DNA from: an uncultured Mycoplasmatota bacterium
Lineage (GTDB): Bacteria; Bacillota_I; Bacilli_A; RF39; UBA660
Length of the DNA: 64,000 nt
Reading direction: 5' to 3'
Assembly (NCBI GenBank): GCA_947302655.1
Contig: CAMYVW010000002.1
Span: forward strand, 233,537-297,536
Positions 9,016 through 34,325 of the stretch are shown in pieces; position 1 is the stretch's first letter; the number at the start of each line of letters is the position of its first letter. The translations under genes were made by a program, and so were the position numbers. The notes under the pieces were generated by a model. It worked only from the letters and a program-made list of their open reading frames with translations. It did not search any database and was not told the DNA's origin.

Positions 9016-9075
9016 GTAAAAGGTATTTTTAATACCTTTTTTTATATGGTATAATTATTTTTAGGAGGCATAAAT

Positions 9076-9714: not shown

Positions 9715-10442
9715 TGGTAATTACATCAGTAAATAATGATTATATTAAAGAAGTTAATAAACTTCATCAAAAAAAGTATCGTGATGAATCGAAAACATTT
9801 ATTGTTGAAGGTGATCATTTAATTGGTGAAGCTTATAAAAGCGGTTATTTAAAAGAAATAATTACTTTAGAAAACAATTTAGTAAAATATGATGATATTA
9901 AAACAGTGTATGTAACTAAAGAAGTTATGGATAAGATATCTGAGCAAGTATCAAGTACTAATATTATTGGTATATGTAATTATATTGAAAATAAAGATGT
10001 AAATAATAATGTAATTATGTTAGATAGTCTTCAAGATCCAGGTAACTTAGGAACTATTATAAGAAGTGCTGTTGCATTTAATTATAATGTTGTTTTAGGT
10101 GATAATTCGGTAGATATTTATAATAGTAAAGTACTTAGATCTACTGAAGGTATGATATTTAATGTTAATTTTATAAAATCTAATTTATTAGATTTTATTA
10201 ATGAACATAATGATTATAAATACTATATTGCTGATATGAATAGAGGTATTAATGTTAAAAAAATAAATAATATACCTAAACACGGAATTATTGTAGGTAA
10301 TGAAGGTAATGGAATATCTAATGAAATAAGAAATATGGATTTAGATTATGTTCACATAGGGCAAAATAATAAATGTGAAAGTTTAAATGTAGGGGTTGCT
10401 GCAAGTATTATTATGCATGAATTAGGTGATATTAATGAATAA
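9714..10442 (+). CDS. TrmH/SpoU-family RNA 2'-O-methyltransferase.
   Basis: LDSLQDPGNLGTIIRSAVAF and GNEGNGIS are SPOUT-class motifs. Confidence 0.75.
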   Translation: MVITSVNNDYIKEVNKLHQKKYRDESKTFIVEGDHLIGEAYKSGYLKEIITLENNLVKYDDIKTVYVTKEVMDKISEQVSSTNIIGICNYIENKDVNNNVIMLDSLQDPGNLGTIIRSAVAFNYNVVLGDNSVDIYNSKVLRSTEGMIFNVNFIKSNLLDFINEHNDYKYYIADMNRGINVKKINNIPKHGIIVGNEGNGISNEIRNMDLDYVHIGQNNKCESLNVGVAASIIMHELGDINE

Positions 10443-10923
10443 GCTTTATGTTGGTAGAGTTGTTGGAACTCATGGTATAAAAGGAGAAATAAAAATTTCT
10501 TCTGATATAGAAGTGCAAGATAAAGTATTTAAAGAAGGTAATATATTATATTTTGATGATTTAAATAATTCTTATGAAATCGAATCTGTTCGATTTCATA
10601 AAAAGAATTATTTAGTTTTACTTAAAGGTTTTAATAATATTAATGATGTTTTATTCTTGCTTAAGAAGAAAGTATATATTGATAGAGATGCAGTTTTAAG
10701 TAGTGATGAATATGTATATGATGATCTAATTGGTTTTGAAATTGTATGTGATGATAAAGTTTATGGAACTATTTCTGATTATGAAGTAAATAATTCATAT
10801 GCAACCTTCTTTGTTGAAGGAGAATCTAATTTTTATCTTCCTAACGTTTCAGAATACGTTATAAATATTGATTTAAAAAACAAAAAAGTTTATACTAAAA
10901 ACGTAGGGGATTTGATATTATGA
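10435..10923 (+). CDS. rimM: 16S rRNA processing protein RimM.
   Basis: MNKLYVGRVVGTHGIKGEIKI is a canonical RimM N-terminus. It lies upstream of trmD in the conserved rimM-trmD-rplS arrangement. Confidence 0.85.
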   Translation: MNKLYVGRVVGTHGIKGEIKISSDIEVQDKVFKEGNILYFDDLNNSYEIESVRFHKKNYLVLLKGFNNINDVLFLLKKKVYIDRDAVLSSDEYVYDDLIGFEIVCDDKVYGTISDYEVNNSYATFFVEGESNFYLPNVSEYVINIDLKNKKVYTKNVGDLIL

Positions 10924-11582
10924 AAATTGACGTTTTAACACTTTTTCCTGAATCTATTGAAGGATTTATTAATGAATCAATTATTAAAAGAGCAATATCA
11001 TCTGGAAAAGTTGAAATAAATTTAATTAATTTTCGTGATTATTCACCACTTAATAATAAGCAAGTCGATGATACTCCTTATGGTGGTGGAGCTGGTATGG
11101 TACTTAGATGTGAACCAATTTTTAATTGTTTAGATGAAATTAAAACACCTGATTCATATGTTATAATGCTAACTCCAGAAGGAAATACTTATAATCAAAA
11201 AATAGCCAAATCCTTATCTTTAAAAAAACATATAATACTTCTTTGTGGACACTATGAAGGTTTTGATGAAAGAATTAAAACGCTAGTTGATGAGGAAATA
11301 TCTATCGGTGATTATATTTTAACTGGAGGAGAAATCGCGGCTAGTGCTATTATAGATTCTGTTGTAAGACTTATTGATGGTGTTATTACAAAGGATAGTT
11401 TGGAATCTGAAAGTTTTAATGATAATCTTTTAGATTATCCAACTTATACTAAACCTAGTGAATATCGAGGTTTAAAGGTTCCTGATGTTTTAATAAGTGG
11501 TAATCATGAACTTATTAATAAGTGGAGAGAAGAACAAAAAAAAGAAAAAACAAAAAATAAAAGACCTGATCTATTAAAATAG
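10920..11582 (+). CDS. trmD: tRNA (guanine37-N1)-methyltransferase TrmD.
   Basis: MKIDVLTLFPE...GGGAGMV...LLCGHYEGFDER are TrmD motifs. Confidence 0.9.
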   Translation: MKIDVLTLFPESIEGFINESIIKRAISSGKVEINLINFRDYSPLNNKQVDDTPYGGGAGMVLRCEPIFNCLDEIKTPDSYVIMLTPEGNTYNQKIAKSLSLKKHIILLCGHYEGFDERIKTLVDEEISIGDYILTGGEIAASAIIDSVVRLIDGVITKDSLESESFNDNLLDYPTYTKPSEYRGLKVPDVLISGNHELINKWREEQKKEKTKNKRPDLLK

Positions 11583-11593
11583 AGGTGAATATC

Positions 11594-12040
11594 ATGAATT
11601 ATAAAATATATCGTAATAAAAAGAGATTTAATGCTGTTGTAACTTATGCAAAACAAAAGCCATATATATTTAATCCTGCATATAGACGAAGCAACGATAT
11701 AATAGATATTAATAAATTTGTTTTATATAATCCTAAAATGATTGATGGTATTTTAGAACAAAAGTATATTAGAAAATATAGAAATCTTTTAAAAATGGTA
11801 TATTTATTATTTAATGATGCCTTTCCTGGGGATACAGGATATCCTGCTGTGCTTGATGAATCAAGTAAACTTAGAGCTACTTTAATAGATAAATATAATA
11901 AGTATTTAAGTTTAACTAAACAAAAGAAATTTTTAAAACAACTTGATTATATTGATTCTGAAGTTAAAAAGAAATATATAGAACAAAGATTGTTTAAAGA
12001 ACAATTTATGAATATGGACTTTAGAGGAATTAATAGATAA
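11594..12040 (+). CDS. Hypothetical protein.
   Basis: ORF after trmD with RBS AGAGGTGA. No family recognised. Confidence 0.4.
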   Translation: MNYKIYRNKKRFNAVVTYAKQKPYIFNPAYRRSNDIIDINKFVLYNPKMIDGILEQKYIRKYRNLLKMVYLLFNDAFPGDTGYPAVLDESSKLRATLIDKYNKYLSLTKQKKFLKQLDYIDSEVKKKYIEQRLFKEQFMNMDFRGINR

Positions 12041-12204
12041 AAAACATCATCATTTGATGATGTTTTTCATTTATAAATAAGTACTTGTACTTTATATTTA
12101 CTTATGTTATAATCTTTTTGACCCAAAAAATGTAATCCGCCTATCAATTAATTAAGTATGATAATGATTGCAGGTTAATATATATTTATAGAAAGGATAT
12201 TTTT

Positions 12205-12546
12205 ATGGCTAATTTAGTTGATAGAATCAATGAAAAGCACATTAAAAAAGACGTTCCTAAGTTTCAAGTTGGTGACACAGTTCGTGTTGATGTATGGGTT
12301 AAAGAAGGAAAGAAAGAAAGAATTCAATCATTTGAAGGCCTAGTAATAGGAAAGAAAAATGGTGGAGTATCTGAAACATTTACTGTTAGAAAGAAATCTA
12401 GTGGTGTTGGTGTTGAAAGAATCTTCCCTGTTAATGCACCTACAATCGATAAAATTACTGTTATTAAAAAAGGTAGCGTACGTCGTGCTAAGTTAAACTT
12501 TATTAAGAAAATGACTAAAGAATATAAAGTTAAAGAAAGAAATTAA
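12205..12546 (+). CDS. rplS: 50S ribosomal protein L19.
   Basis: MANLVDRINEKHIKKDVPKFQVGDTVRVDVWVKEGKKERIQSFEG is a canonical L19. Confidence 0.9.
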   Translation: MANLVDRINEKHIKKDVPKFQVGDTVRVDVWVKEGKKERIQSFEGLVIGKKNGGVSETFTVRKKSSGVGVERIFPVNAPTIDKITVIKKGSVRRAKLNFIKKMTKEYKVKERN

Positions 12547-12580
12547 GGTTTAACCTTAATTTTTTTACTTAAAAGGAGAT

Positions 12581-13075
12581 TTGATTATTGTGAAAAAGTT
12601 TCTAAAAGATATTTACCCTTATTTAATAATTGTTGCTGTTGTTGTATTAATTAGAACGTTTTTATTTACACCAATTAGAGTTAGTGGTCCATCAATGAAT
12701 CCTAATTTAAAAAATGGTGACATTATGATTTTAAATAAAACAGCAAAGATTGATAGATTTGATATTGTTGTTATCAAAAGTAAAGATGTTGATGATGTTT
12801 TAATTAAAAGAGTAATTGCACTTCCTGGTGAAACTTTTGAAGTAAAAGATGGTGATATCTATATTAATGATAAAAAGATTAATGATAAATATGGATATGG
12901 TGAAACAGCTGATTTTGTTAAACTAAAGGTACCGCAAGGTGAATACTTTGTAATGGGTGATAATAGATCAATATCTGCTGATAGTAGAATGTTTGGTACA
13001 TTTAAGAAGAAAGATATTAAAGGAACTACAAGTTTTATACTATTTCCTTTTAAAAGATTTGGTAAGGTAAAGTAG
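12581..13075 (+). CDS. lepB: Signal peptidase I.
   Basis: N-terminal TM, the SGPSMNPNL serine box and the GDNRSISADSR lysine-box region. A TTG start follows RBS AAAGGAG. Confidence 0.8.
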   Translation: MIIVKKFLKDIYPYLIIVAVVVLIRTFLFTPIRVSGPSMNPNLKNGDIMILNKTAKIDRFDIVVIKSKDVDDVLIKRVIALPGETFEVKDGDIYINDKKINDKYGYGETADFVKLKVPQGEYFVMGDNRSISADSRMFGTFKKKDIKGTTSFILFPFKRFGKVK

Positions 13076-13147
13076 ATATCATAGATGTCTACTTTTTTAC
13101 TTTGTGATATAATTATCAGGATGATTATATTGAAAGGGTGTTAATAT

Positions 13148-13903
13148 ATGCTTACAGTAAAGAATATTAAAAAGAAATTCATTAAGCTTGAAAAGAATAA
13201 CAAAAAGATCGAGATTTATGCAAATAACGGAATAAGTTTTACTGCAAATGAAGGAATGATTCTTGGTGTTTTAGGACCTAACGGGGCCGGTAAAACAACG
13301 TTACTTAGAATTGTTGCGGGAATTATTGAACCAACTGAAGGTACTGTTGATTATGATTCATTAATTTTTAAAGATAATGAGATCGAAATTAAAAGAAATT
13401 TGGCGTATTTATCGGGAAATACTAAAATATATAACACAGTATCTGCATATGAACTTCTGAAAATGTGTGCTGAAGTTTATGGAGTACAAAAGACTCAAAT
13501 TAAAAAGAGAATAGAGGAAATATCTAAAAAGTTGGAAATGGATTCGTTTTTATATAATAGAATATCATCTTTATCTACTGGTCAAACACAAAGAGTTAAT
13601 ATAGCAAGATGCTTAATTCATGATCCTAAATATTATATTTTAGATGAAGCTACTAGTGGTCTTGATATCATATCTAGTCAAATAATACTTGATTTTATTA
13701 AAGAAGAGAAAAAAAGAGGAAAAACCATTCTTTATTCAACACACTATATGGAAGAAGCTGAAAATATATGTGATTATGTTTTAATGATTAATAAAGGCGT
13801 TTTGGTAAAAGAAGGCACACCAGATAGAATTAAAAAAGATACTAAAACTACCAATTTAAGGGACGCTTTCTTTAGTATAATTGGAGGTGTTAAGAATGAA
13901 TAG
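13148..13903 (+). CDS. ABC transporter ATP-binding protein.
   Basis: Walker A GPNGAGKTT, signature LSTGQTQR and Walker B ILDEATSGLD. Confidence 0.85.
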   Translation: MLTVKNIKKKFIKLEKNNKKIEIYANNGISFTANEGMILGVLGPNGAGKTTLLRIVAGIIEPTEGTVDYDSLIFKDNEIEIKRNLAYLSGNTKIYNTVSAYELLKMCAEVYGVQKTQIKKRIEEISKKLEMDSFLYNRISSLSTGQTQRVNIARCLIHDPKYYILDEATSGLDIISSQIILDFIKEEKKRGKTILYSTHYMEEAENICDYVLMINKGVLVKEGTPDRIKKDTKTTNLRDAFFSIIGGVKNE

Positions 13904-15035
13904 TTTATTAATTATTTTAAAAAAAGAATTAAAAGATGTTTTTCGAGATAAAAAGTCTTTATCTATGATGCTTATTATTCCTTTTATGATACCTTTAATA
14001 ATCATTGGAATGTCAGCTCTATTTAATATGGAAGCTAATAAAGATATTAAAACTTATAATAAGATTGGTTTTTGTTATGAGTTAAGCGAAGCGGAATTAA
14101 ATATTGCTAAGGAACTAAATATTGAGGTTATATATAAAGATGAAAATGAACTAAAAAAAGATTACGAAGATGGTTTGATTAATTTGTACGTTACTAAAAT
14201 TGCTGATACATATATACTTAATGGAACCACAGGAGAAAACACTACTTTTGCTGTTGATTTAGTTAACAATTATTTTCATAAATATAAAGAATATTTACAA
14301 GTTAAATATTTAAATGAAAATAATATTAATGCAAATAAATTAATAAATATTATTAATGTTGAAGAAAATATAAAAGAAAAAGATAATTATTTTCAAAACT
14401 ATATTTTTACGTATGGATTCTTATTTATTATAATGGCAATAACTGTTTCTTCTACATATCCTGCAACAGATGCAACAGCTGGTGAAAAAGAAAGAGGCAC
14501 GTTGGAAACTTTAATTACTTTTCCTATTAAAAGTAAGGATATTATATTAGGTAAATTTTTAAGTGTATTTATTTCTAACTTTATTACTGGCATATTAAGT
14601 TTAATTTTTTATTATTTTTCATTAATACTATCAGGTAATATGTTTAAAATATACGAGGGAATTAATTTAGTTCTTCCGTTTAAAACATTTATGTTTATTT
14701 TTAGTGTAATAACTTTATACTCACTTCTTATTGCTGGTGTATGCATAGCTGTTGCAAGTAAATGTAAGACATTTAAAGAAGCACAAAGTGCTTTAACTCC
14801 GTTTACTTTCTTGTCTTTATTTCCTGGAATGCTTGCATTTATGATAAGCTTAAAATCTTCATTATTACTTTCTTTTGTTCCTTGTTTGAACTTTGTTTTA
14901 TTATTCCAAGATTTAATGAACGGAAGCTTAAATATCTTATATTTAATTGTTATGTTTATATCAACAATTGTGATAATAGCTGTTTTACTTGGTGTAATTA
15001 TAAAGCAGTATAAGTCAGAAAAAATTATTATTTAA
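13896..15035 (+). CDS. ABC-2 type transporter permease.
   Basis: Directly follows the ATPase and overlaps it. It is a multi-TM protein with a large first extracytoplasmic loop, typical of ABC-2 permeases. Confidence 0.7.
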   Translation: MNSLLIILKKELKDVFRDKKSLSMMLIIPFMIPLIIIGMSALFNMEANKDIKTYNKIGFCYELSEAELNIAKELNIEVIYKDENELKKDYEDGLINLYVTKIADTYILNGTTGENTTFAVDLVNNYFHKYKEYLQVKYLNENNINANKLINIINVEENIKEKDNYFQNYIFTYGFLFIIMAITVSSTYPATDATAGEKERGTLETLITFPIKSKDIILGKFLSVFISNFITGILSLIFYYFSLILSGNMFKIYEGINLVLPFKTFMFIFSVITLYSLLIAGVCIAVASKCKTFKEAQSALTPFTFLSLFPGMLAFMISLKSSLLLSFVPCLNFVLLFQDLMNGSLNILYLIVMFISTIVIIAVLLGVIIKQYKSEKIII

Positions 15036-15114
15036 TTATAATTAAAGTAAAGTATTTAACTTTACTTTTTTTATGTTATAATTTGTTTATAAAGTAGTAA
15101 GGGTAGTAGTATAA

Positions 15115-16539
15115 ATGAAAAAGAAGTATGTTTTAATTTCATTAATTAGTATTATATTAATATTAATTAGTATATCTATTTTTTACATTGTACGAATTAA
15201 TAAGGTTAAACCAACATTTGCTAGTTTAAATAAAGATTCTTCTGGCAAAGTTGATTTAGTTGTAAAACAAGATGTTTTATCACCCTATATTGATGAAGAT
15301 GTTACTTTAAAACTTGGTGATAAAACTATTGATAAATCAAAATATAAAGTTACTAAAACTGGTATAGTTGATACATCTACTTTAGGAACTTATGAAATCG
15401 AATATATAATTAAGTATTCTTATAGAACTATTAAAGTTAAAAAGACTATTGAAGTTGTTGATCAAACAGCTCCTGAACTTACTATTAATGTTGATGAAGT
15501 AGATAGAGATTTTTGTTCTAAAAAAATTAAACAAAATATCGTATATAGTGCTATTGATAATTATGATGGAGATATTACTTCTAATGTTACAGTTGAAGAA
15601 GGAGAAGATAAATTAATATATTCTATAACTGATTCAAGTGGTAATACTTCAACTAAAGAAGTAAACATTAATTATGGTAAGAAACCAGGAAATAAATTTT
15701 ATATAAATGGTGCTAATCCAATGCATGTTATTATTAATACTGAGTATCAAGAAAAAGGTGCAAGTTATACTGATGGATGTGGAAAAAATATTGGTAAAGA
15801 AATAATTACTTCAGGAACAGTAGATACAACTGTTGAAGGAACATATTATATTAATTATGATGTAGAAGGTGAAGCAACAATTACTAGAAAAGTAATTGTT
15901 GAACATTACGCACCTAAAACAATATATTTAACATTTGATGATGGACCTGGAGCAAATACAGTTAAGGTATTAAATGCTTTAGATAAGTATAATGTTAAAG
16001 CAACATTCTTTGTTACAAATCAATTTCCTCGATATCAATATTTAATTGCTGAGGAATATAATAAGGGTCATAAAATAGGAGTTCATACTTTAACTCATAA
16101 GTGGAGTGTTTATGATAGTTTAGATGCTTATTTAGATGATTTTAACCAAATGAATGAAATAGTTAAAAACCAAACTGGGTCTTATACTAATATATTTAGA
16201 TTTCCTGGTGGATCTGGTAATACTGTAAGTAGAAGTCATAAAACTGGTGTAGTTACAGAAATAGCTAATGAAATGACTAATAGAGGTTATATTTATTTTG
16301 ACTGGAATTTAAGTAGTGGTGATGCTGATGGTAAGGGAGCATCTACTGATAAAATTATAAGTAATGTAGTTAACAGAGTAGATAAGTGCTCTGCTCACTG
16401 TGTTATATTATTTCATGATTATAAACCAACTACAGCAAATGCGATAGAACCAATACTTGCAGAACTTACTAAAAGAGGTTACAATTTTGCGACACTAAAT
16501 GAAAATAGTCCAACAGTACATGCAAAGATTTTAAATTAA
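15115..16539 (+). CDS. Polysaccharide deacetylase (NodB homology domain) with N-terminal TM and Ig-like repeats.
   Basis: TFDDGPGANTVKVLNALDKYNVKATFFV and HTLTH are NodB motifs. Confidence 0.8.
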   Translation: MKKKYVLISLISIILILISISIFYIVRINKVKPTFASLNKDSSGKVDLVVKQDVLSPYIDEDVTLKLGDKTIDKSKYKVTKTGIVDTSTLGTYEIEYIIKYSYRTIKVKKTIEVVDQTAPELTINVDEVDRDFCSKKIKQNIVYSAIDNYDGDITSNVTVEEGEDKLIYSITDSSGNTSTKEVNINYGKKPGNKFYINGANPMHVIINTEYQEKGASYTDGCGKNIGKEIITSGTVDTTVEGTYYINYDVEGEATITRKVIVEHYAPKTIYLTFDDGPGANTVKVLNALDKYNVKATFFVTNQFPRYQYLIAEEYNKGHKIGVHTLTHKWSVYDSLDAYLDDFNQMNEIVKNQTGSYTNIFRFPGGSGNTVSRSHKTGVVTEIANEMTNRGYIYFDWNLSSGDADGKGASTDKIISNVVNRVDKCSAHCVILFHDYKPTTANAIEPILAELTKRGYNFATLNENSPTVHAKILN

Positions 16540-16715
16540 AAAGATATTAGATAGTATCTAATATCTTTTTCTATTGTAAACTTTATTTTTTATTCTATTG
16601 AGATTTTTTTTATTTTGTACTAGAATATCTAAGGTGCTTTAGTAATATAAAGTTTATTAGTTACATTTTAAAATTATTATGTATAAAATAATTAAAGGTG
16701 AAGGAGATAAATAGT

Positions 16716-19130
16716 ATGAGAAAAATAACTGATTTGATTGTTAAATTTAGATATGCTTTTTTAATAATTTTTATTTTACTTGCTGGTCTTTGCTTATATT
16801 TACAAACTAAAGTAAATATTAATGATGATATTATGAAATATTTACCTAAAAGTAGTGAAACAAAAATTGGTAATGACATAATGAATAAAGAATTTGATAA
16901 ATTAAGTACATCAAATTTAGATGTTATGTTTAAAGGTTTAACTAAAAAGGAAAAGGTAAAAACTTTTGAAAGATTATCTAAAGTAAAGGGTGTATCTTCT
17001 GTTAGATATGATAATACTAATGAATATAATATTGGTGATTATACTTTATATAAATTATCAGTAGATGATTATAGTGATTCTAAACTTGCTAAAAATGTAT
17101 ATGAGAGAGTTAAAGATAACTTTAAAGTTGATGCTATGAGTGGATCTATTTATGATGAAAATAAACCACTTTTACAACTTTGGATTGTTTTCTTAGCAAT
17201 AAGCTGTGCGTTAGTAATACTTATTATATTAAGCGATTCTTGGTTTGAGCCATTCTTATTTTTAATAACTATAGGTATAGCTGTATTTATTAATAAAGGT
17301 ACTAACATAATGTTTAGTAGTGTATCATCTATTACTAATGCAATAGTTGCAGTATTACAACTAGCACTTTCAATGGATTATTCAATCATGCTATCTAATA
17401 GATTTAAACAAGAAAAAGAAAAAAATAGTAATAAAATAGAAGCTATGAAAGAAGCACTTTACCAATCATTTAAAGCTATATCTAGTAGTTCATTTACAAC
17501 TATTGTTGGATTACTAGCTTTAGTATTTATGAGCTTTACTATTGGTAAAGATCTAGGATTTATTTTGGCAAAAGGAGTTTTATTAAGTTTAATAAGTATT
17601 TTCTTTTGTTTACCTGCATTACTATTATTTTTCGATACATTCTTAAAAACAACAAAGAAAAAATCATTTAAGTTTAAATTTAATAAAAAACTAAGTAAAT
17701 TTAGTTATAAAAATAAACATGCTTTAACATTTACTATAATAGGTTTATTTTTATTAGCATTCTTATTAAAGGGTAGCGTTCAAATCCTTTATACTGATAT
17801 TCAGCAAGATAAAGTGGGTCAGGTATTTGGTTCTAATAACCAAATTGCTATAGTATATGAAAATAGTTATAGTGATAAAGTTAATAATTATTTACCAAGT
17901 TTAATGGATGATGAAAATGTATCTGCAATTCTTTCTTATGATATGCTTTTGGAAAGAAAATTATCTGCTGATGAATTAACAGCTCTTGCATCTAATTTTT
18001 CATCAAGTATAGATATTGATGAGAGTTTAGTAAAACTTGTTTATTATATGAGATTTGATGGACAGATTCATGATGATTTATCTATTAGTGATCTTCTTAA
18101 AACGATTAATAGTAATGATTATTTAAGTAGTTATGTTAAAAATAATTATAGTGTAGATTTATCGGAGATTATTAATAGTTTAGATGGCGTATCTTTAAAT
18201 GATAAACTTGATGTTAAAACATTATCTAAACTTTTAAATGTAGATGAAAAAGAATTAAATTTATTATATTTATTTTATAATGCAAATGTAAATTATAATA
18301 ATGAATGGTCATTAACCGCAGAAGAAATATTCGCGTTTATTAAAGATACTGTTGCAGAAAATGATTATTTAATGAACTTTATTCCAAATGAGAAAAGATT
18401 AAGTTTACTTGTTAGTTTTAATAAAGTATCTAATATAAAAAATATCTTTGTTTCTGATAAATATAGTAGAGCCGTTTTAAATACTACTTATAAACAGGAA
18501 GGAAAAGAAACATATGAATTTGTTAAAGATATTAATAAGAAGTTAGGTAAAGAAAAAGGTATTTATATTGTAGGTGTTTCACCAATGGCATATGAGATAA
18601 ATAAAACTTTTAACTCTGAACTTAATAAGATTACTTTAATAACAATTATTTTTATCTTCATTGTAGTTGCATTTACATTTAAAGATTTAATAATTCCATT
18701 TGTTTTAGTTTTAATGATTCAGTGCGCTGTATATATTACAATGAGTTATATATCAATTACTGGTGGAAGTGTATACTTTATAGCAATATTAATTGTTCAA
18801 GCTATTTTAATGGGAGCAACAATTGATTATGCAATTGTATTTACATCTTATTATAGAGAAGGAAGACTAACTAAAAATGTTAAAGATTCAATTCTTTATG
18901 CATATAATGGTTCTATTAGAACAATCGTTAGTTCAGCATCTATATTAATAATTGTTACTTTAATTGTTTCTAATTTTGCAACTGCCATAGCCGCTAAAAT
19001 ATGTGAAACAGTTTCTCAAGGAACATTCTGTGCATTATTATTAGTTTTATTAATTCTACCAGGTGTTTTAGCTACATGTGATAAATTAATATGTAGGGGA
19101 GAAAAATATAATAATATTGATAAAAAATAA
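16716..19130 (+). CDS. MMPL/RND-superfamily membrane transporter.
   Basis: About 800 aa. It has two repeats of TM1, a large extracytoplasmic domain, then 5 TM, which is MMPL-like topology. The ATG at 16716 follows RBS AAGGAG. Confidence 0.6.
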   Translation: MRKITDLIVKFRYAFLIIFILLAGLCLYLQTKVNINDDIMKYLPKSSETKIGNDIMNKEFDKLSTSNLDVMFKGLTKKEKVKTFERLSKVKGVSSVRYDNTNEYNIGDYTLYKLSVDDYSDSKLAKNVYERVKDNFKVDAMSGSIYDENKPLLQLWIVFLAISCALVILIILSDSWFEPFLFLITIGIAVFINKGTNIMFSSVSSITNAIVAVLQLALSMDYSIMLSNRFKQEKEKNSNKIEAMKEALYQSFKAISSSSFTTIVGLLALVFMSFTIGKDLGFILAKGVLLSLISIFFCLPALLLFFDTFLKTTKKKSFKFKFNKKLSKFSYKNKHALTFTIIGLFLLAFLLKGSVQILYTDIQQDKVGQVFGSNNQIAIVYENSYSDKVNNYLPSLMDDENVSAILSYDMLLERKLSADELTALASNFSSSIDIDESLVKLVYYMRFDGQIHDDLSISDLLKTINSNDYLSSYVKNNYSVDLSEIINSLDGVSLNDKLDVKTLSKLLNVDEKELNLLYLFYNANVNYNNEWSLTAEEIFAFIKDTVAENDYLMNFIPNEKRLSLLVSFNKVSNIKNIFVSDKYSRAVLNTTYKQEGKETYEFVKDINKKLGKEKGIYIVGVSPMAYEINKTFNSELNKITLITIIFIFIVVAFTFKDLIIPFVLVLMIQCAVYITMSYISITGGSVYFIAILIVQAILMGATIDYAIVFTSYYREGRLTKNVKDSILYAYNGSIRTIVSSASILIIVTLIVSNFATAIAAKICETVSQGTFCALLLVLLILPGVLATCDKLICRGEKYNNIDKK

Positions 19131-19189
19131 TAGGATTCAAATGTATATTTGAACCTTTTTTTGTGTTATAATTTCATTAGGTGTTATAT

Positions 19190-19747
19190 ATGAGTTTAGA
19201 ACAATTATATGAGATTTTATTGTCTGATAATCCTAGTAAATTAATTAAAAAACATGAAGATAAAATATTTGATATGATTCCTGAATTAAAAGCTTGTAAA
19301 GGTTTTAATCAAAATAATATTTGGCATGTGTATGATGTTTATGAACATATTCTTCATGTTATAGATAAAGTAGATAAAGATTTACCCCTTAGACTGAGCG
19401 CACTTTTTCATGATGTTGCTAAACCCAGTGTGTATACCGAAGATTCTGATGGATTTGGGCATTTTCCTTTTCACTGGGTTGAATCAGTTAAAATATTTGA
19501 TAGATTTGTAAATAAATATAATGTAGATTCAACTCTTGCAGAGCAAACGAGAAAACTCATATTTTTTCATGATGCAAATAAGGAAAAACTTAATAGAGTT
19601 TTAGATGTTTTTGATAGTGAATCTATTAAAAAATTATTTAATTTAAAAAGATCTGACTTACTTGCACAAAATCCAAAGTTTCATTATATGATTGATACTT
19701 ATGATGATTTTGAAAAAGAAGCTTTAGATAAAATTAGAAAAAGATAA
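19190..19747 (+). CDS. HD-domain phosphohydrolase.
   Basis: H...H...LSALFHDVAKP HD motif. It is a small standalone HD protein and a paralog of the gene at 23285. Confidence 0.6.
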   Translation: MSLEQLYEILLSDNPSKLIKKHEDKIFDMIPELKACKGFNQNNIWHVYDVYEHILHVIDKVDKDLPLRLSALFHDVAKPSVYTEDSDGFGHFPFHWVESVKIFDRFVNKYNVDSTLAEQTRKLIFFHDANKEKLNRVLDVFDSESIKKLFNLKRSDLLAQNPKFHYMIDTYDDFEKEALDKIRKR

Positions 19748-19777
19748 TTATTAATAATTTATATAGAGGTGAGATAT

Positions 19778-22177
19778 ATGGAAAATAAAGAATATAAATA
19801 TGATGCATTTATTAGTTACAGACACTGTGAACGAGATAAATTTGTTGCCGAGAATTTGCATAGAATTTTAGAAAGTTATGATTTACCAAAAGGTATTAAA
19901 ACTAAACTTGGAGTAGAAGGAAAAGCTTTTAAAAGAATATTTAGAGATCAAGAAGAATTACCACTTTCAAGTAATTTAGAAGATCCTATTATTGATGCTT
20001 TAAATCAATCTAAATATTTAATTGTTATATGCTCACCTAGACTTAAAGATTCTTTATGGTGTAAAAAAGAAATTCAAACCTTTAAAAAAATTAGGGGAAG
20101 AAAAAATATTTTATGTGTTTTAGTTGAAGGGGAACCATCTGAATCTTTCCCTGAAGAAGTTTTGTATGATGAAAAAGAAGTTAAACAAAAAAATGGTAAA
20201 GTTAAAAAAGAAAAGATTCTTGTTGAACCTTTAGCAGCTGATGTAAGGGGTAATTCAAAGTCTGAAGTTTTAAAAAGAATAAAAGAAGAAAAATTAAGAC
20301 TTGTTGCATCCATGTTTAATATTGATTATGATGATCTAAGACAAAGACATAAGTTAAGAAAACAAAAAAGGATTATAGCTTTATCATCTGCTATTGCATG
20401 CTTTTGTCTTTTATTTGCTTTATATACATCTGTAATGTTTCTTAAAATAAATAAACAAAAAAATACATTAAGAGAGCATCAAGCTTTATCTTTATCAGCT
20501 AAAGCACTTGATTATTTAAGTATTGATGATAGATATGATGCTATCGAATCTTCTTATCAAGCTTTAACTAAATTTGATGGTGTAAAAATGCCTTATACTT
20601 CTGATGCTGAGTATGCTCTTGTTGAAAGTCTTGGTTTATATGATGTTGGTTCATCATATAAATCAATATCAGAAATTAAAACTAAAGGTGTTGCTGATTA
20701 TATAAAATCAACATCAGATAAAAAATATGACGCTCTTTATGATGAATCTGGAGAGTTAACTTTATTTGACACTGCAACTATGAAAGTTATAAAGATATTT
20801 AAAGTAAGTGATAAATCATTTAATGAAGAATCATTTTCATTTATAGGAAATGAAAAATTAGTTTATATAAATGATAAAAATAACCTTAATATTGTTAATG
20901 TAGAAAATGGAAAATTAATTAAAGAAATTAAAAAAGATGATAGATATTTTAATTCTGTTTTAGGTGAATCAACTGGAAAATATCTAGCTTATGATACAAA
21001 TAAAAATTTTTATTTATATGATTTAGAAAATGATAAGTTAATTACTCAATTATCTACTGATAACAAGTTTATGAAAGAATTATATTTTTCAAGTGATAGT
21101 AGTTATGTTTTTACTTCTTCGATAAAAGAAAGTCCTAGTATTAGTGAAGAAGATTATATAACAGTTCATACTATTAATATTAAAACTGGTAAAGAAGTTA
21201 GTTCTATTACTTTTGCTGCTGGTTATTTATCAGGTATAGTTACTAAAGAAAATAATGCTTATGTTCTTCTTAATGAAGCAATAGGTACTAAATTTAATAT
21301 GATAGTTGCTTCTTATAACTATACTGATGGTAAGAGTAACTGGACGAAAACATTTGATAATAATTGGGGTACATTTATTGTTCCATCTTATGATGAAAAA
21401 ATAGATCATATTGCTGTTGTTAATCATGATGCTTTTAAATTAATTAGTTCAAAAGATGGAGATGTTGTTCAGTCAACTACTGCAGCTAAAGAAATTATTG
21501 ATATATATACATCAGCAGGCAAGGAAATCTATACATTATTCTTAGCTAATGGTGATGTTAACTTTTATAATGCTGATGCAAAAGATAATATTAATTTACT
21601 TGGTAAGTTTGAATTTAATTTAGATAGATATTCTAAAGTTGCTTTAGCATCACATGGATTCTTATTAATACCGGAAAACTCTAATAGAGTGATTCTTTAT
21701 GAAGAAAAATTTAATAAAGATATTAAAAAAGAAAATATTAAAGTTGATTATGTAAATGATGATTCAATAAATATAACTAAATTTGAAGAAGTTATAAATA
21801 AATATAGTATTAAAAATAAAAGTTTAGTTGAAAAGATTTTTTATGATGATAAAAAAGAAGTTATGTTTGTTAATTATACTAATAAGGATATTTCTGTATA
21901 TGATGTAAAAACTAAAAAGCTTTTAAAAACTATTGAAAATGTTGATACAGTTTATCATTATTTTGGTAAAGATAAATTAGGTAGAACCTATCTTGGAGAT
22001 ATGTCTGATGCATATATATTTGATAAAGACTATAATAAAGTTGGTCATATTAAAAGTCTTGTAAAACTTGATAAAGATAAAGTATATATTTTATACAATA
22101 GTGAATATTATTCTTTAAAAGTTTATGATTTAGAAGATATATTAAAAGAAGCTAAAAATTATTTAAATAAAAAATAA
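19778..22177 (+). CDS. TIR-domain protein with topology N-terminal cytoplasmic TIR, single TM, large extracytoplasmic domain.
   Basis: YDAFISYRHCERDKFVAENL...FRDQEELPLSSNLEDPIIDALNQSKYLIVICSPRLKDSLWCKKEIQTF matches TIR motifs, including the conserved Glu position. A TM helix (IIALSSAIACFCLLFALYTSVMFL) lies at about aa 200-225, followed by roughly 570 aa. Confidence 0.7.
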   Translation: MENKEYKYDAFISYRHCERDKFVAENLHRILESYDLPKGIKTKLGVEGKAFKRIFRDQEELPLSSNLEDPIIDALNQSKYLIVICSPRLKDSLWCKKEIQTFKKIRGRKNILCVLVEGEPSESFPEEVLYDEKEVKQKNGKVKKEKILVEPLAADVRGNSKSEVLKRIKEEKLRLVASMFNIDYDDLRQRHKLRKQKRIIALSSAIACFCLLFALYTSVMFLKINKQKNTLREHQALSLSAKALDYLSIDDRYDAIESSYQALTKFDGVKMPYTSDAEYALVESLGLYDVGSSYKSISEIKTKGVADYIKSTSDKKYDALYDESGELTLFDTATMKVIKIFKVSDKSFNEESFSFIGNEKLVYINDKNNLNIVNVENGKLIKEIKKDDRYFNSVLGESTGKYLAYDTNKNFYLYDLENDKLITQLSTDNKFMKELYFSSDSSYVFTSSIKESPSISEEDYITVHTINIKTGKEVSSITFAAGYLSGIVTKENNAYVLLNEAIGTKFNMIVASYNYTDGKSNWTKTFDNNWGTFIVPSYDEKIDHIAVVNHDAFKLISSKDGDVVQSTTAAKEIIDIYTSAGKEIYTLFLANGDVNFYNADAKDNINLLGKFEFNLDRYSKVALASHGFLLIPENSNRVILYEEKFNKDIKKENIKVDYVNDDSINITKFEEVINKYSIKNKSLVEKIFYDDKKEVMFVNYTNKDISVYDVKTKKLLKTIENVDTVYHYFGKDKLGRTYLGDMSDAYIFDKDYNKVGHIKSLVKLDKDKVYILYNSEYYSLKVYDLEDILKEAKNYLNKK

Positions 22178-23284: not shown

Positions 23285-23836
23285 ATGAACTTAAATGAAA
23301 TATTATTATCAGATAATGTAGTTGAATCCATTAATGAAAATATTGACTACTTATTACAAATAATTCCAGAAATTAAAAATATGATTGGGTTTGAACATAA
23401 ACATCCACATCATCACTTAGATGTTTGGAATCACACTTTATTAGCATTAAGTTTATCTGAAAATGATTTTGATGTAAGGTTGTGTTTATTACTTCATGAT
23501 ATAGGTAAACCTTTTTCATATCAAGATGAAGATGTGAGACATTTTAGAAATCATGCGGTAGTATCTGCTAATATGTCAAAGATAATATTAAAAAGGTTAG
23601 GATTTGATGATGACTATATAAAATATGTTTGTTATCTAATTGAACACCATGATACTCAAATTAGTAATGAACAAATCGTAAATGATTATGATTTATGTTT
23701 AAAGTTATTAAAAATACAAAAGTGCGATGCATTAGCACATCATCCTGATAAATTAGAAAAAAGAAAGAAATATATTGATGAAATATATAAAGAACTAGTA
23801 TTAAATAAAGAAGTTGACTCTCATGAATGGAAATAA
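23285..23836 (+). CDS. HD-domain phosphohydrolase.
   Basis: HKHPHHHLDVWNHT...LLLHDIGKP HD motif. It is a paralog of the gene at 19190. Confidence 0.6.
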   Translation: MNLNEILLSDNVVESINENIDYLLQIIPEIKNMIGFEHKHPHHHLDVWNHTLLALSLSENDFDVRLCLLLHDIGKPFSYQDEDVRHFRNHAVVSANMSKIILKRLGFDDDYIKYVCYLIEHHDTQISNEQIVNDYDLCLKLLKIQKCDALAHHPDKLEKRKKYIDEIYKELVLNKEVDSHEWK

Positions 23837-23905
23837 AACTAATATAAACTGGTTGATATTGATTTAGTCAAAGATTCATTCAAACTCCTATAAGATAAGG
23901 AAAAC
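23831..23905 (+). repeat. rbgA-5'-end repeat copy B with a ~50-bp extension.
   Basis: aaataaaactaatataaactggttgatattgatttagtcaaagattcattcaaactcctataagataaggaaaa is nearly identical over ~70 bp to copy C at 24849. Confidence 0.7.
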
Positions 23906-23968
23906 TAAGTGTTTAGTAATTACATTTTTTAATAAATGATATTAAAAAGAACAAAATAACTAAAATAG

Positions 23969-24673
23969 TTATTTTGTTCTTTTTCTTACGTATTCTTTTT
24001 CTAAAGCTTTACTATCTATATTGTAATTGTATATTTTATTTTTTTTGATCTCGTTTTGCAATTTGTTTTCTTCTTTTTTATCGATTGTTTTTTCGTCATC
24101 ATCTTTTTCTATATTAATATTAGTATTATTCTTTTGCTTTATTTTATCTTTAAGCTGTATAGACAAGCTTGCTACTCCAAGTGATGCCATTGAAGTTGTT
24201 AATAATATACTTAAAATAGAATTTAAGGATACATTATTTAAAAGTATGATTGATATTCCTGTTAGGGCTGTAAATAATCTGCTTATTGATAATCCTTGAA
24301 CAGTTCTTTCTTCTTTATTTTTAGTTTTAGCAAGATTAATTGCACCACCAGTTAAAAGGATGGAATTATAACCTATGATAGTTGTTGCAAATGTCGGAGA
24401 AATTTTTTTTGTAATTAATAAACCTATAAGACATAAAAAAATTCCGGTTTTATCAGTTATAGTATCCATTATTCTAAATCTTAATTTATCTTTTTCATTG
24501 TTATATTTTCTTGATATTTTTCCATCAAATATATCAGATGTCATTATAACAGTTGTTAGTAATATTTGGCTAAGTAATGTTATTGAAAGCACATTGAATG
24601 TGCTTAGGATTATTGGAATGAATGATATTATTCTTGTTGTGAGAAGAGCATATGGTATATTCTTTTTTTTCAT
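23969..24673 (-). CDS. CDP-alcohol phosphatidyltransferase family protein (divergent).
   Basis: Multi-TM protein with DIFDGKISRK...RIMDTITD resembling the D-x2-DG-x2-AR...D-x3-D motif. The start is moved to the internal ATG (MKKKNIPYAL) that follows RBS GAGGTGA. It is a minus-strand gene inside the repeat-bounded region. Confidence 0.5.
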   Translation of the reverse strand: MKKKNIPYALLTTRIISFIPIILSTFNVLSITLLSQILLTTVIMTSDIFDGKISRKYNNEKDKLRFRIMDTITDKTGIFLCLIGLLITKKISPTFATTIIGYNSILLTGGAINLAKTKNKEERTVQGLSISRLFTALTGISIILLNNVSLNSILSILLTTSMASLGVASLSIQLKDKIKQKNNTNINIEKDDDEKTIDKKEENKLQNEIKKNKIYNYNIDSKALEKEYVRKRTK

Positions 24674-24819
24674 AACCATCACCTCATATAGTTGGTTATT
24701 ATACAATACTATTTAAATTTGTACAATGTTTATTGTATTAACCATGATATCTAAAATCATAAAAAATATGATATAATTAATTAGTGAAGTTTTCTTAAAA
24801 AGAAAAGGGAGTGATTCGT

Positions 24820-24882
24820 ATGAATAGTAATGAAAAAGTTGAGCTAGACAAAACCAATATAAACTGGTTGATATTGATTTAG
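24820..24882 (+). pseudogene. Fossil rbgA 5' end (MNSNEKVELDKTNINWLILI*) with its own -10 box and RBS.
   Basis: Compare the true rbgA start MNNENKTNINWYPGHM. It is preceded by TATGATATAAT (24767-24777) and AAGGGAGTGA, and contains repeat copy C. Confidence 0.45.
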
Positions 24883-24919
24883 TCAAAGATTTATTCAAAC
24901 TCCTATAAAATAAGGAAAA
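24849..24919 (+). repeat. rbgA-5'-end repeat copy C (variant) with a ~50-bp extension.
   Basis: caaaaccaatataaactggttgatattgatttagtcaaagatttattcaaactcctataaaataaggaaaaaac is a direct repeat of copy B. Confidence 0.7.
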
Positions 24920-25055
24920 AACAAGTATATACTTGTTACACAATTTGATAAAAATATATAAAATAATGATAAAAATAACAAAAAAAGTTTTAAAAATAGC
25001 ATAGTATTTGATACTTGGTATTGACGGTTAAGCCATTAATATAAGAGGTGAAAAT

Positions 25056-25571
25056 ATGAGTGATTTATCTAAAATAATTTTAGGAACAGGTAATTATTAT
25101 CATGTAAAAAGTGGTAATACTGTATCCGTTACTGGTGATGGTGGTAATGCATGGGGATATTTTGGACCAGCATATAAAAAATTAGCTCCTAAACTAGTTA
25201 CTTATACACCTTATGCTGAAAAATTAGAAGTATTAGAAGAATTAAAAAAAGATGTCTCTAAATTAAAAGAATATATAGAATTTAGAAAACAAATAGAAGA
25301 TGAATATATAAAAAGTTATTATAATATAAGACTAAAAGATTTAGATGTTAAAGAGTTACTTTATATATTAAATGAGAAATTTGGTAATGATATAATATTA
25401 TTGTGTCATGAACCAATAGATGAATTTTGTCATAGAAGATTGATTGCAGATTATATAGAACTTGAAACAGGTATATATATACCAGAAGTAAGTGTAGATG
25501 AACAAGGTAATGTTAAAAAACTTGTTCCAATAAGATATAAAAATAGACTAAAAGAAGTAATAAAAAAGTAG
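25056..25571 (+). CDS. DUF488-like protein (C-terminal LLCHE...CHRRL motif).
   Basis: LLCHEPIDEFCHRRLIADYIE resembles the conserved C-terminal motif of DUF488. The N-terminus is divergent. Confidence 0.35.
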   Translation: MSDLSKIILGTGNYYHVKSGNTVSVTGDGGNAWGYFGPAYKKLAPKLVTYTPYAEKLEVLEELKKDVSKLKEYIEFRKQIEDEYIKSYYNIRLKDLDVKELLYILNEKFGNDIILLCHEPIDEFCHRRLIADYIELETGIYIPEVSVDEQGNVKKLVPIRYKNRLKEVIKK

Positions 25572-25580
25572 GTGATTTAC

Positions 25581-26441
25581 ATGAATAACGAAAATAAAAC
25601 TAATATAAACTGGTATCCAGGACATATGCAAAAAACTAAACGACTAATTGAAGAAATGAAAGATCAAATAGATGTTGTTATAGAGTTAATTGATGCAAGA
25701 TGCCCATACTCATCTAAAATGAGAGATATAGATAATCTAATTAAAAATAAACCTAGACTTTTGGTTTTAACAAAAAAAGATCTATGTGATATTAATGAAA
25801 CTAATAAATGGATTAAGTATTATGAAGATGAAGGTTATAATACAGCACTTATTAGTGGTATTAATGATAAGGACTATAAAGTTATTTATGAAAAACTAAG
25901 TGATATTACTTCTTCTATTCAAGAAAAAAGAATATCTAAAGGTTTAAAGATAAAAGAAATTAGATGTTTAGTTATAGGTATACCAAATGTAGGTAAATCA
26001 ACGTTAATTAATAAAATGGTTGGTAGAAAGGTAGCTAATATAGGAAATAGACCTGGAGTTACAACTTCTTTAAACTGGCTTAAAACAAATGCTGGAGTAC
26101 TACTTTTAGATTCTCCTGGTATTTTATGGCCTAAATTTGATGAAGAAGAAGTAGCTTTAAACTTAGCTGCAATATCATCAATTAGAACAGAAGTAATAGA
26201 TATTGATTCTGTTGCTGTTCATATATTAAAATTTTTAGAAAAATATTATCCAGATATTCTAGAGTCTAGATATAAAATTACAAACACAGAAGATATCTTA
26301 GAAGTATATAATAGTATAGGAAAACAAATAGGAGCATATAAAAATGGTGAAGCTGATTTTGATAGAGTTAGTAATAAAATTATTAATGATATTAAATCAG
26401 AAGCTATTAAAGGAGTAACATTTGATAGATGGAGAAAATAG
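25581..26441 (+). CDS. rbgA: Ribosome biogenesis GTPase A (YlqF/RbgA).
   Basis: MNNENKTNINWYPGHMQKT, a circularly permuted GTPase with G4 LTKKDL, G1 GIPNVGKST and G3 DSPG. It precedes rnhB as in Bacillus. Confidence 0.85.
   Translation: MNNENKTNINWYPGHMQKTKRLIEEMKDQIDVVIELIDARCPYSSKMRDIDNLIKNKPRLLVLTKKDLCDINETNKWIKYYEDEGYNTALISGINDKDYKVIYEKLSDITSSIQEKRISKGLKIKEIRCLVIGIPNVGKSTLINKMVGRKVANIGNRPGVTTSLNWLKTNAGVLLLDSPGILWPKFDEEEVALNLAAISSIRTEVIDIDSVAVHILKFLEKYYPDILESRYKITNTEDILEVYNSIGKQIGAYKNGEADFDRVSNKIINDIKSEAIKGVTFDRWRK
25592..25614 (+). repeat. rbgA-5'-end repeat copy D (the native site inside rbgA codons 5-12).
   Basis: Exact AAATAAAACTAATATAAACTGGT. Confidence 0.7.
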
Positions 26442-31281: not shown

Positions 31282-32268
31282 ATGGATAATCTTAATAAGT
31301 ATGTTGAAGAAATGAAGGAAGAAGTTCTTATCCGAAATCTTAAAACTGAACTTGAAATTATAAAATTTGTATATTTTGATTTGGGTAATAGATTTTCATT
31401 TGATCCAAAATTTATTCCTTTTGGTGATAGCAGATATAGACAAAATTTTTATAGATATCACGCAGGAAACATTTATGATTTAAATGAATGTATGGAAAAC
31501 GGGATTATTATTTGTAAGTCAGTTTCACATATACTTGAATATGTTTTATCAAAATTTGATATTGATATTAAAATATATGAAGATGTATCTGAAAAGAGAA
31601 AACACTGTCCTCATGTATGTAATCAAGTTACATTAAAAGATGGTAGAAAATTTGTTATTGATCTTCAAGAAGATATACGTAACATTAAACTAAATTTCTT
31701 TACATCAAATTTTGGCGTTAAATCGTTATATGGAACTGATTATGTTATTAGTAAAGATGAGCAAAGAAAAGTTGATGTTAAGCTTGGATATATATCTAAT
31801 AATAATGATTATACAGATGAATATATTAGTGTTTTAGAATCGCTTGTTAGTGGTGTTGATGATATATTTTTAAAACTTGATATTATCTTAAATAATATAG
31901 ATATTATTACTCCTACTAACTTAAGTTATACTGATAGACTGTGGTATCATAAAGATATCTTAGAGAAAATCTTTACTTATTTTGAATTTAATTATTCCGC
32001 TGTTTCACAGTCTGGTTCAGGTAAGATAAAAATTATTAATTGTCATTTAAATGTTGATCAGGATAAAGTATATGTATGTTTAATTCAAGTGTTTGATAAG
32101 GGTAAGGCCGTTTATTATATGTATGATGATGTTAGTTATAAGTATAATAAGATTTCACTTGAGGAACTTGCGGATTATTATCAGTATGGATTAGTAGTAC
32201 ATAATTCTCGAATACATGGATTACGAAAAGAATTAAAAGCAAGAAGAAATAAAGAAAAAAATAATTAA
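31282..32268 (+). CDS. Hypothetical protein.
   Basis: ORF with RBS AAGGAGGTGA. No family recognised. Confidence 0.45.
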   Translation: MDNLNKYVEEMKEEVLIRNLKTELEIIKFVYFDLGNRFSFDPKFIPFGDSRYRQNFYRYHAGNIYDLNECMENGIIICKSVSHILEYVLSKFDIDIKIYEDVSEKRKHCPHVCNQVTLKDGRKFVIDLQEDIRNIKLNFFTSNFGVKSLYGTDYVISKDEQRKVDVKLGYISNNNDYTDEYISVLESLVSGVDDIFLKLDIILNNIDIITPTNLSYTDRLWYHKDILEKIFTYFEFNYSAVSQSGSGKIKIINCHLNVDQDKVYVCLIQVFDKGKAVYYMYDDVSYKYNKISLEELADYYQYGLVVHNSRIHGLRKELKARRNKEKNN

Positions 32269-32374
32269 ATAATTATTTTTTACTTTATTTTTTTAATGTA
32301 AATATGTATATAAAAAAAACTTTTTTAATAATTACTTTTCATGCTATAATTTAAATATGAAAGTAGGATAGTAT

Positions 32375-34324: not shown

Positions 34325-34325
34325 T

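Follow-up and report, generated by a model that had tools for sequence, protein, structure and literature searches.

The window analysed here, a 64,000-nucleotide (nt) stretch of contig CAMYVW010000002.1 (positions 233,537 to 297,536 of the forward strand; assembly GCA_947302655.1) from an uncultured Mycoplasmatota bacterium, carries on its plus strand a gene whose product of 799 amino acids (aa) appears to combine a cytoplasmic TIR domain, one transmembrane (TM) helix, a helical stalk and a large external beta-propeller, and is thus predicted to be a single-pass type II membrane protein that could serve as a receptor (Table 1). The open reading frame (ORF) list places this gene at 19778-22177, the coordinates given in the original prediction, which had been made from the DNA of the locus by itself. 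The equivalent methionine is the start in all orthologues, where it begins the motif M-E-x-K. An AlphaFold2 (AF2) model of the full-length protein, based on 94 orthologues (predicted local distance difference test, pLDDT, 87.7; predicted template modelling score, pTM, 0.70), contains in order the TIR domain at residues 8-179, an uninterrupted helix at 184-248, two helices up to residue 285, about 43 beta-strands and a C-terminal helix. Because this architecture recurs at full length in hundreds of genomes, it lies far beyond chance.

Table 1. Features of the TIR gene and its surroundings in window coordinates, with residue ranges where they apply
Feature	Coordinates	Strand	Basis
Upstream HD phosphohydrolase, 188 aa, separated from the TIR gene by 30 nt	19181..19747	+	Pfam HD, 22.2 bits
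Shine-Dalgarno sequence GAGGTG, 6 nt before the ATG at 19778	19766..19771	+	Read from the sequence
Whole gene, TIR / TM / stalk / beta-propeller	19778..22177	+	ORF list; orthologues; AF2 model
Predicted cytoplasmic TIR domain, residues 8-179, (beta-alpha)5 fold, BB loop 57-69	19799..20314	+	Pfam; PDB profile; Foldseek; AF2
W94-C95-K96-K97-E98 at the start of alphaC, putative catalytic Glu with adjacent Cys	20057..20071	+	L6/TLR2 alignment; conservation
Lys/Glu-rich beta-hairpin insertion, residues 130-148, between alphaD and betaE	20165..20221	+	DSSP on both AF2 models
Conserved basic juxtamembrane segment, residues 183-198, DYDDLRQRHKLRKQKR	20324..20371	+	Conservation; AF2
Single TM helix, residues 199-221	20372..20440	+	Kyte-Doolittle; homologues
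Predicted extracytoplasmic helical stalk, residues 222-285	20441..20632	+	AF2 helices; conservation
WD40-type beta-propeller array, residues 286-781, about 11 four-stranded blades	20633..22120	+	Pfam (weak); AF2; Foldseek
Conserved C-terminal amphipathic helix, residues 785-797	22130..22168	+	AF2; conservation
Downstream HD paralogue, 183 aa, final gene of the same-strand run	23285..23836	+	Pfam HD, 41.4 bits; HDIG, 31.8 bits
19-bp hairpin between convergent genes	23944..23984	.	Terminator scan

The TIR fold proposed for the N-terminal domain was borne out by Pfam hidden Markov models, a profile search of the PDB and structure comparison. Pfam placed TIR_2 (PF13676) on residues 11-119 (E 2.5e-10, 41.3 bits against a cut-off of 28), with ThsB_TIR (29.6 bits) and TIR (PF01582; 21.7 bits against a cut-off of 21.3) also above threshold, and the homologues from Lachnospiraceae, Butyrivibrio and Fusobacterium received the same TIR assignment. 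A profile of 44 diverse N-terminal domains matched exclusively TIR domains in the PDB (E 3e-6 to 8e-3), among them those of Toll-like receptors (TLR15, TLR2, TLR6 and TLR1), Arabidopsis AtTIR, flax L6, AbTir, TcpB, Roq1 and Cat1. A separate AF2 model of residues 1-198 (pLDDT 82.6) arranges its strands and helices in the canonical order, with the BB loop at low confidence (betaA 8-13, alphaA, betaB 54-56, BB loop, alphaB, betaC 78-85, alphaC 93-106, betaD 111-115, alphaD, betaE 153-155, alphaE 161-179). TIR structures dominate its top 50 Foldseek matches at probability 1.0, alongside a few weaker flavodoxin-like or Rab domains, and include SARM1, RUN1, L7, AbTir and SPARTA, all of them active NAD+-cleaving enzymes (NADases). 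Between alphaD and betaE lies a beta-hairpin (strands 130-136 and 142-148) that is variable and sometimes deleted in orthologues, with 54% identity against 86% for the TIR core.

All three motifs read in the original prediction, FISYRH (11-16), FRDQEELP (55-62) and SPRLKDSLWCKKEI (86-99), are present in the translation, and the glutamate conserved in TIR NADases is found there as E98. Pairwise alignment showed that the surrounding SLWCKKE pairs with SKWCLMEL of the flax L6 TIR and EWCKYEL of TLR2, and W94, C95 and E98 are each kept in at least 95% of 82 homologues of 28-60% overall identity. In the TIR of L7, which is near-identical to L6, Glu135 is the catalytic residue of NADase activity, and Cys132, adjacent to the catalytic glutamate, is required for 2',3'-cyclic nucleotide monophosphate (2',3'-cNMP) synthetase activity (bioRxiv 10.1101/2021.11.09.467869). 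Judged by its sequence, the window TIR is plausibly competent as an NADase, and the motif does not prove activity, because TLR TIR domains bear it too.

TLR TIR domains are classically regarded as scaffolds, and the window TIR might likewise be non-enzymatic, tethering a cytoplasmic partner to a surface propeller of structural, adhesive or cell-wall role. TLR TIRs with the same WCxxE are among its best PDB sequence matches, and the near-invariance of the TIR surface (86% identity) fits a conserved binding partner equally to catalysis. Genes for cell-wall enzymes were also found at other loci (Peptidase_M15_4 at 4 and Amidase_3/SPOR at 3 of 87 immediate neighbours, a set from which 43 DHH and 19 GlnRS genes had been excluded), and a deacetylase, an MMPL transporter and an LtaS-like gene lie near the window gene. 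However, the retention across phyla of W, C and E, the full set of known catalytic positions in plant and bacterial TIR enzymes, together with the active NADases among the structural neighbours, argues against this reading, and no conserved cytoplasmic partner gene adjoins the window gene. We regard a purely scaffolding TIR as unlikely.

A Kyte-Doolittle scan revealed a sole hydrophobic segment at residues 199-221 (19-residue mean 2.26) and a hydrophilic N-terminus, so that the protein has no signal peptide and a single TM helix, both as originally proposed; exactly one TM helix at about residue 200 was found in 80 of the 82 homologues (>700 aa). The 15-residue flanks of this helix carry on average 6.1 Lys or Arg residues on the N-terminal side versus 2.5 on the C-terminal side in the 82 homologues, and because of this excess we conclude that the protein should be N-in/C-out, a predicted single-pass type II protein with its TIR inside and its propellers outside. 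Cysteine composition points the same way: Bacilli-clade members have 3-5 Cys in about 200 cytoplasmic residues versus 0-2 in about 575 C-terminal residues, and the ectodomain of the window protein has none, a pattern that agrees with the known exclusion of cysteine from exported Firmicutes proteins. This bias is not seen in the Lachnospiraceae homologues. The orientation originally predicted, a cytoplasmic TIR with an outside C-terminal domain, is thus in line with both the flank counts and the cysteine composition. In the AF2 model the continuous helix 184-248 comprises the juxtamembrane segment, the TM helix and part of the external stalk, and so joins the TIR to the stalk; its juxtamembrane stretch (DYDDLRQRHK...) keeps D185, D186, R190 and H191 in at least 95% of the 82 homologues.

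This topology bears on whether the protein could be a host-directed effector of the Tcp type (TcpB/BtpA- or TcpC-like) that disturbs animal TLR signalling in gut or rumen. The carriers are indeed animal gut and rumen commensals, and the TIR profile weakly matches the TcpB and PdTIR structures, but a TIR without a signal peptide, located on the cytoplasmic face of its membrane anchor, cannot reach host cells, and no secretion-system genes were found as neighbours. With the TIR cytoplasmic and membrane-tethered, we rejected this explanation, which we hold to be very improbable indeed.

For the stalk, the AF2 model gives helices at 184-248, 252-263 and 275-285 (pLDDT >90), with an invariant MPYT motif at 271-274. 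The C-terminal 578 aa form repeat-rich beta structure, and residues 290-781 were modelled as all-beta with about 43 strands, or about 11 blades (pLDDT about 85-97). Pfam matches to WD40 and other beta-propeller families in the C-terminal two thirds are weak and mostly under threshold. Foldseek recovered the tandem WD40 structures Utp21, Gemin5, Apaf-1 and 2ymu (E about 1e-16, probability 1.0) at just 8-13% identity, and single 7-8-bladed propellers at TM-scores of 0.77-0.79. In the model, then, the ectodomain is a beta-propeller, as the original prediction had ventured, and of the WD40 type; the blade count of about 11 is approximate. The chain ends in a helix in which L785, L789, A792, Y795 and L796 are almost invariant.

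Relatives of the protein are numerous. The best 120 database matches are all full-length proteins (783-825 aa) of 53-73% identity from metagenome-assembled genomes (MAGs) labelled 'Bacilli bacterium', giving at least 120 full-length orthologues in this identity range. A genome-contig scan with the single window protein found no relative, and an alignment-based scan with a degenerate pattern, covering one genome per GTDB species, found relatives in at least 579 species genomes. The best 80 of these are Bacilli MAGs of ruminant-gut origin together with numerous Lachnospiraceae (Acetatifactor, Wujia, Butyrivibrio and isolate AB2028), at 28-36% full-length identity. When 1.84 billion representatives were searched with a profile, 3,267 clusters (50% identity) reached E<=1e-30, of which the top 150 all have E <1e-110 and are nearly all 760-1060 aa long. 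The TIR-TM-propeller layout is also encoded in complete genomes, by an 814-aa protein (WP_167562754.1) on pNP243, the 243-kb replicon of Butyrivibrio fibrisolvens D1, and by a 1018-aa protein of Fusobacterium vincentii SB055. The architecture is therefore a common one in gut Firmicutes and is found in Fusobacterium too. NCBI annotates family members merely as 'TIR domain-containing protein', and literature searches found no description of a bacterial TIR-TM-propeller protein. The architecture had been called unusual; this holds relative to characterised bacterial TIR proteins, but not for a family of this size. A longer subfamily of about 960-1030 aa, to which the F. vincentii protein belongs, has the same TIR and TM helix with an ectodomain about 180 aa longer (loci L063, L068, L071-L073, L075, L078, L079, L082, and L088 at 5974-9030).

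Conservation is unevenly distributed along the chain. Among the 94 orthologues identity is 86% in the TIR core, 80% in the juxtamembrane segment, 71% in the stalk, 50% in the TM helix and 50-60% in the propeller, the ectodomain as a whole being about 56% identical, and nearly all positions conserved to at least 95% across Bacilli and Lachnospiraceae lie in the cytoplasmic domain. Six Lachnospiraceae loci (L016 at 9968-17493, L017, L026, L080 at 4923-12460, L035 and L044) have two or three paralogues in tandem, with TIRs 58-72% identical and ectodomains only 28-37%. By sequence comparison such arrays look like a diversifying receptor family. Within the species, comparison with rumen contigs obtained through cluster member P0121 (98% identical in the TIR gene) gave 32 synonymous and 14 non-synonymous codon differences, 23 and 7 of which respectively fall in the ectodomain; because synonymous differences exceed non-synonymous ones, the gene appears to be under purifying selection. 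Exact-sequence contig look-ups with the window protein and its GNAT neighbour gave no match.

The window is a low-GC (about 25%) chromosome segment in which nearly every ORF of at least 90 aa lies on the plus strand and GC skew is positive in all 2-kb bins (1-64000), which fits a leading-strand segment of a small low-GC rumen Bacilli genome. The gene is located within the housekeeping region rimM-trmD-rplS-lepB ... rbgA-rnhB-topA, surrounded by genes for an ABC transporter, a polysaccharide deacetylase, an MMPL transporter, two HD proteins, a GNAT protein, a CDP-alcohol phosphatidyltransferase and an LtaS-like sulfatase. Gaps in the run MMPL-HD-TIR-GNAT-unknown-HD are just 19-71 nt, and the 19-bp hairpin after it is likely a bidirectional terminator that closes the run. 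A promoter scan of this 25% GC DNA gave 93 sites against 98 expected. In other Bacilli-clade genomes the gene lies a few kb upstream of rbgA-rnhB-topA with variable immediate neighbours, and in Lachnospiraceae the recurring order is purH, a DHH/DHHA1 phosphoesterase gene, the TIR gene and glnS. PADLOC, run on the 87 immediate neighbours, found no defence family in more than three of them, and those hits are TIR paralogues or HD proteins; the commonest Pfam families, with 3-4 members each, are EAL, Peptidase_M15_4, Amidase_3/SPOR, NUDIX and RyR. Searches of IMG/VR (2.9 million viral contigs) and INPHARED (50,697 phage genomes) returned no relative. The gene is therefore neither in a defence island nor on a mobile element; it is vertically inherited and chromosomally stable. 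A reading as prophage or plasmid cargo was rejected, as neighbours, PADLOC and the viral and phage searches gave it no support.

These results weigh on the abortive-infection role that the original prediction had suggested, in which the propellers would detect phage adsorption or injection and the TIR would deplete NAD+, so that the cell is killed or arrested. Phage defence is the role of most characterised bacterial TIR proteins (e.g. PMC11350192). The ectodomain diverges much faster than the TIR, the tandem arrays with diversified ectodomains resemble immune-receptor families, and PADLOC reported a weak match to the candidate family PDC-S66 (E 1.4e-5). Yet the gene sits in conserved housekeeping synteny in two bacterial classes, recurrent defence-family neighbours are missing from the 87 flanking genes, and phage-borne relatives are absent from the viral collections searched. 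Orthologues of 53-73% identity across many MAGs also indicate stable inheritance rather than the patchy island pattern of defence genes, and within the species the ectodomain shows no excess of non-synonymous differences. The genomic context thus disfavours a dedicated anti-phage sensor, which we regard as unlikely though still a serious contender. Because of its vertical inheritance, housekeeping neighbourhood and lack of mobile elements, we favour a conserved role in surveillance of the envelope or surface over a mobile anti-phage module.

Comparison with known systems places the protein outside the established classes. Toll-like receptors share with it a sensor outside, one TM helix and a TIR inside, as well as the pattern of a conserved TIR with a variable ectodomain and paralogue arrays, and the TIRs of TLR2, TLR15, TLR6 and TLR1 are among its best PDB sequence and structure matches. 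They are, however, type I proteins with a signal peptide, leucine-rich repeats (LRRs) and a C-terminal TIR, whereas the window protein is predicted to be type II with an N-terminal TIR and a WD40 propeller, and its system has no MyD88-type adaptors. The likeness is one of the TIR superfamily, not of orthology, and with no signal peptide, an N-terminal TIR and no LRR ectodomain the protein fails as a TLR proper. The inverted Toll-like topology of the original prediction accordingly needs dividing: the order along the chain is inverted from N to C (type II versus type I), but the topology across the membrane is the same as that of a TLR.

With the TIR NADases AbTir, ThsB, SARM1, L6/L7, RUN1 and RPP1 the protein shares the TIR fold and the WxxxE glutamate, with an adjacent cysteine as in plant TIRs. 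Known TIR NADases are soluble or joined to sensor domains of the cytoplasm (NB-ARC, SAVED, STING, APAZ or SAM), while the window protein appears to be membrane-anchored with an external sensor, and no ThsA, cyclase or Argonaute partner was found near its gene. Thoeris ThsB was rejected, since Pfam found no SIR2, SLOG or Macro domain in about 30 flanking genes and PADLOC gave no Thoeris match; the ThsB_TIR match is weaker than the overlapping TIR_2 match. A CBASS or Pycsar TIR effector was rejected as well, as neither the protein nor its neighbours contain a cyclase or a SAVED/STING domain. Closer in design logic are PknD of Mycobacterium tuberculosis and the hybrid two-component sensors of Bacteroides, in which a single TM helix connects an external beta-propeller with a catalytic or signalling domain in the cytoplasm. 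Their outputs are a Ser/Thr kinase or a histidine kinase/response regulator rather than a TIR, and their propellers are of the NHL or Reg_prop type, not WD40-like. In bacteria, E. coli TIR defence systems with TM segments demonstrate that TIR domains can combine with transmembrane elements; according to the survey that covers them, bacterial TIR systems seem to lack TLR-like features, transmembrane receptor architecture among them (PMC11350192). Those E. coli systems are small, located in defence islands and validated against phage, and none has been described with an external propeller of about 580 aa (PMC11350192).

Several neighbouring genes are candidates for partners of the TIR gene. The two HD genes that flank it were confirmed as distant paralogues (30.6% identity over 157 aa, E 1e-17), in keeping with the original prediction. 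The upstream protein scores barely over the 22-bit Pfam cut-off. Both HD proteins are similar to the HD part of CCA-adding enzymes (for the upstream one, NCBIfam TIGR02692, E 5e-11), a region with 2',3'-cyclic phosphodiesterase activity. An HD paralogue lies within three genes of the TIR gene at only 4 of 11 non-redundant Bacilli-clade loci, and Lachnospiraceae have a DHH gene instead, so that the adjacency pointed out originally is seen in the window but only in part of the family. HD paralogues are enriched within three genes of the TIR gene in the Bacilli clade (6 of 66 versus 1 of 175 genes; Fisher p = 0.002, which overstates the evidence as the loci share ancestry); NUDIX genes are not (p = 0.32). 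The HD proteins are thus possible functional partners through a weak link, to be taken as a lead. The DHH/DHHA1 protein of about 510 aa is encoded directly upstream on the same strand at 43 to 48 of about 65 Lachnospiraceae loci, depending on how loci are counted (e.g. L013 at 8437-10011), and its gene frequently overlaps the TIR gene by 1-4 nt. Its absence from the Bacilli clade and the window rules it out as a universal partner. At six loci the TIR gene adjoins a gene for a membrane protein, TM-TrkA_N-RyR, whose Rossmann domain is TrkA_N-like and which ends in a RyR domain (PF02026, 30.8 bits). These loci represent four lineages, with one each from B. fibrisolvens, F. vincentii and an Erysipelotrichaceae MAG and three from Lachnospiraceae MAGs: L087 at 10754-12568, L088 at 9034-10860, L028 at 7825-9618, L063 at 13056-14486 (minus strand), L071 and L079. 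In some genomes this protein may thus serve as a partner or effector; the window does not encode it. No neighbour is universal among the loci compared. A cytoplasmic protein of 209-230 aa with no Pfam or NCBIfam match occurs one to four genes downstream at four non-redundant Bacilli-clade loci (L001 at 10399-11028, L005, L006 and L009), and is likewise not in the window.

Among the explanations considered, we lean, at a little under an even chance, towards an outside-in receptor in which clustering activates a cytoplasmic TIR enzyme to cleave NAD+ or make a nucleotide signal; each step of this model we infer. The propeller array would bind a surface or external ligand, or detect envelope disturbance, and its engagement would alter how the protein oligomerises in the membrane. 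The short, rigid and conserved juxtamembrane helix might then draw the TIRs together into composite active sites, as in other TIR enzymes, where E98 and possibly C95 would cleave NAD+. The outcome would be NAD+ depletion, or a signal derived from ADP-ribose or a cyclic nucleotide, leading to a cytoplasmic stress, growth-arrest or signalling response; speculatively, such a signal could be switched off by the nucleotide phosphoesterases encoded close by (HD in the window, DHH in Lachnospiraceae). A TIR that is near-fixed under a divergent ectodomain, both in the 94 orthologues and in the tandem paralogues, is a receptor-like pattern and supports such a role.

Other observations weigh against the receptor model. 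No obligatory downstream effector or partner lies near the window gene, the topology is called from the positive-inside rule and composition, and the propeller matches are generic (8-13% identity in Foldseek) and indicate no specific ligand-binding family. The WxxxE glutamate, being present in TLR TIR domains as well, is no proof of NADase activity, and members of the family are known through sequences and models. Absence from defence islands, moreover, is compatible with an anti-phage role and does not exclude one.

A more far-reaching form of the outside-in model, which we consider doubtful, would make the protein a prokaryotic counterpart of Toll-type signalling, in which a surface cue elicits an NAD+-derived second messenger made by the TIR, as a conserved physiological pathway in gut Firmicutes and Fusobacteria and not a suicide defence. 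The cue could be a cell-wall fragment, a neighbouring cell, or a host or phage component, and the HD, DHH or TM-TrkA_N-RyR proteins could act as signal terminators or effectors. As far as we found, the receptor-like TIR-TM-propeller combination is experimentally undescribed yet very common, its component domains being known. Bacterial TIR proteins characterised to date are soluble or cytoplasmically regulated defence enzymes. If the window TIR is active and externally controlled, it would be the first bacterial case of transmembrane TIR signalling, would bear on the origin of receptor-type TIR signalling, and would provide abundant gut, rumen and oral bacteria with a new route for sensing their surroundings or the state of their envelope. 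The family has culturable carriers in B. fibrisolvens and F. vincentii.

Elsewhere in the window, a strain-variable spot adjoins the conserved HD-TIR-GNAT-unknown-HD block. Downstream of the second HD gene, the same-species contigs (L084 at 14265-19549 versus window 23900-26400) differ from the window, with genes for GNAT, WDGH, DUF3658, methyltransferase and NADAR proteins where the window has the CDP-alcohol phosphatidyltransferase gene. Just before rbgA, a 171-aa protein (25056-25571) has weak matches to DUF488 and to candidate PADLOC families (PDC-M45C, E 2.4e-5). Three consecutive same-strand ORFs after topA (328, 649 and 413 aa; 31282-35555) and a 561-aa ORF at 40828-42513 have no Pfam match at E<=1e-4. 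At 5110-9015 two DUF2207 membrane proteins (645 and 406 aa) flank a 210-aa ORF without a family match. Finally, a nucleoside 2-deoxyribosyltransferase-like gene (PF15891) is followed by two paralogous histidine-phosphatase genes (His_Phos_1) at 38735-40742, in a region notably dense in small nucleotide-metabolising enzymes.

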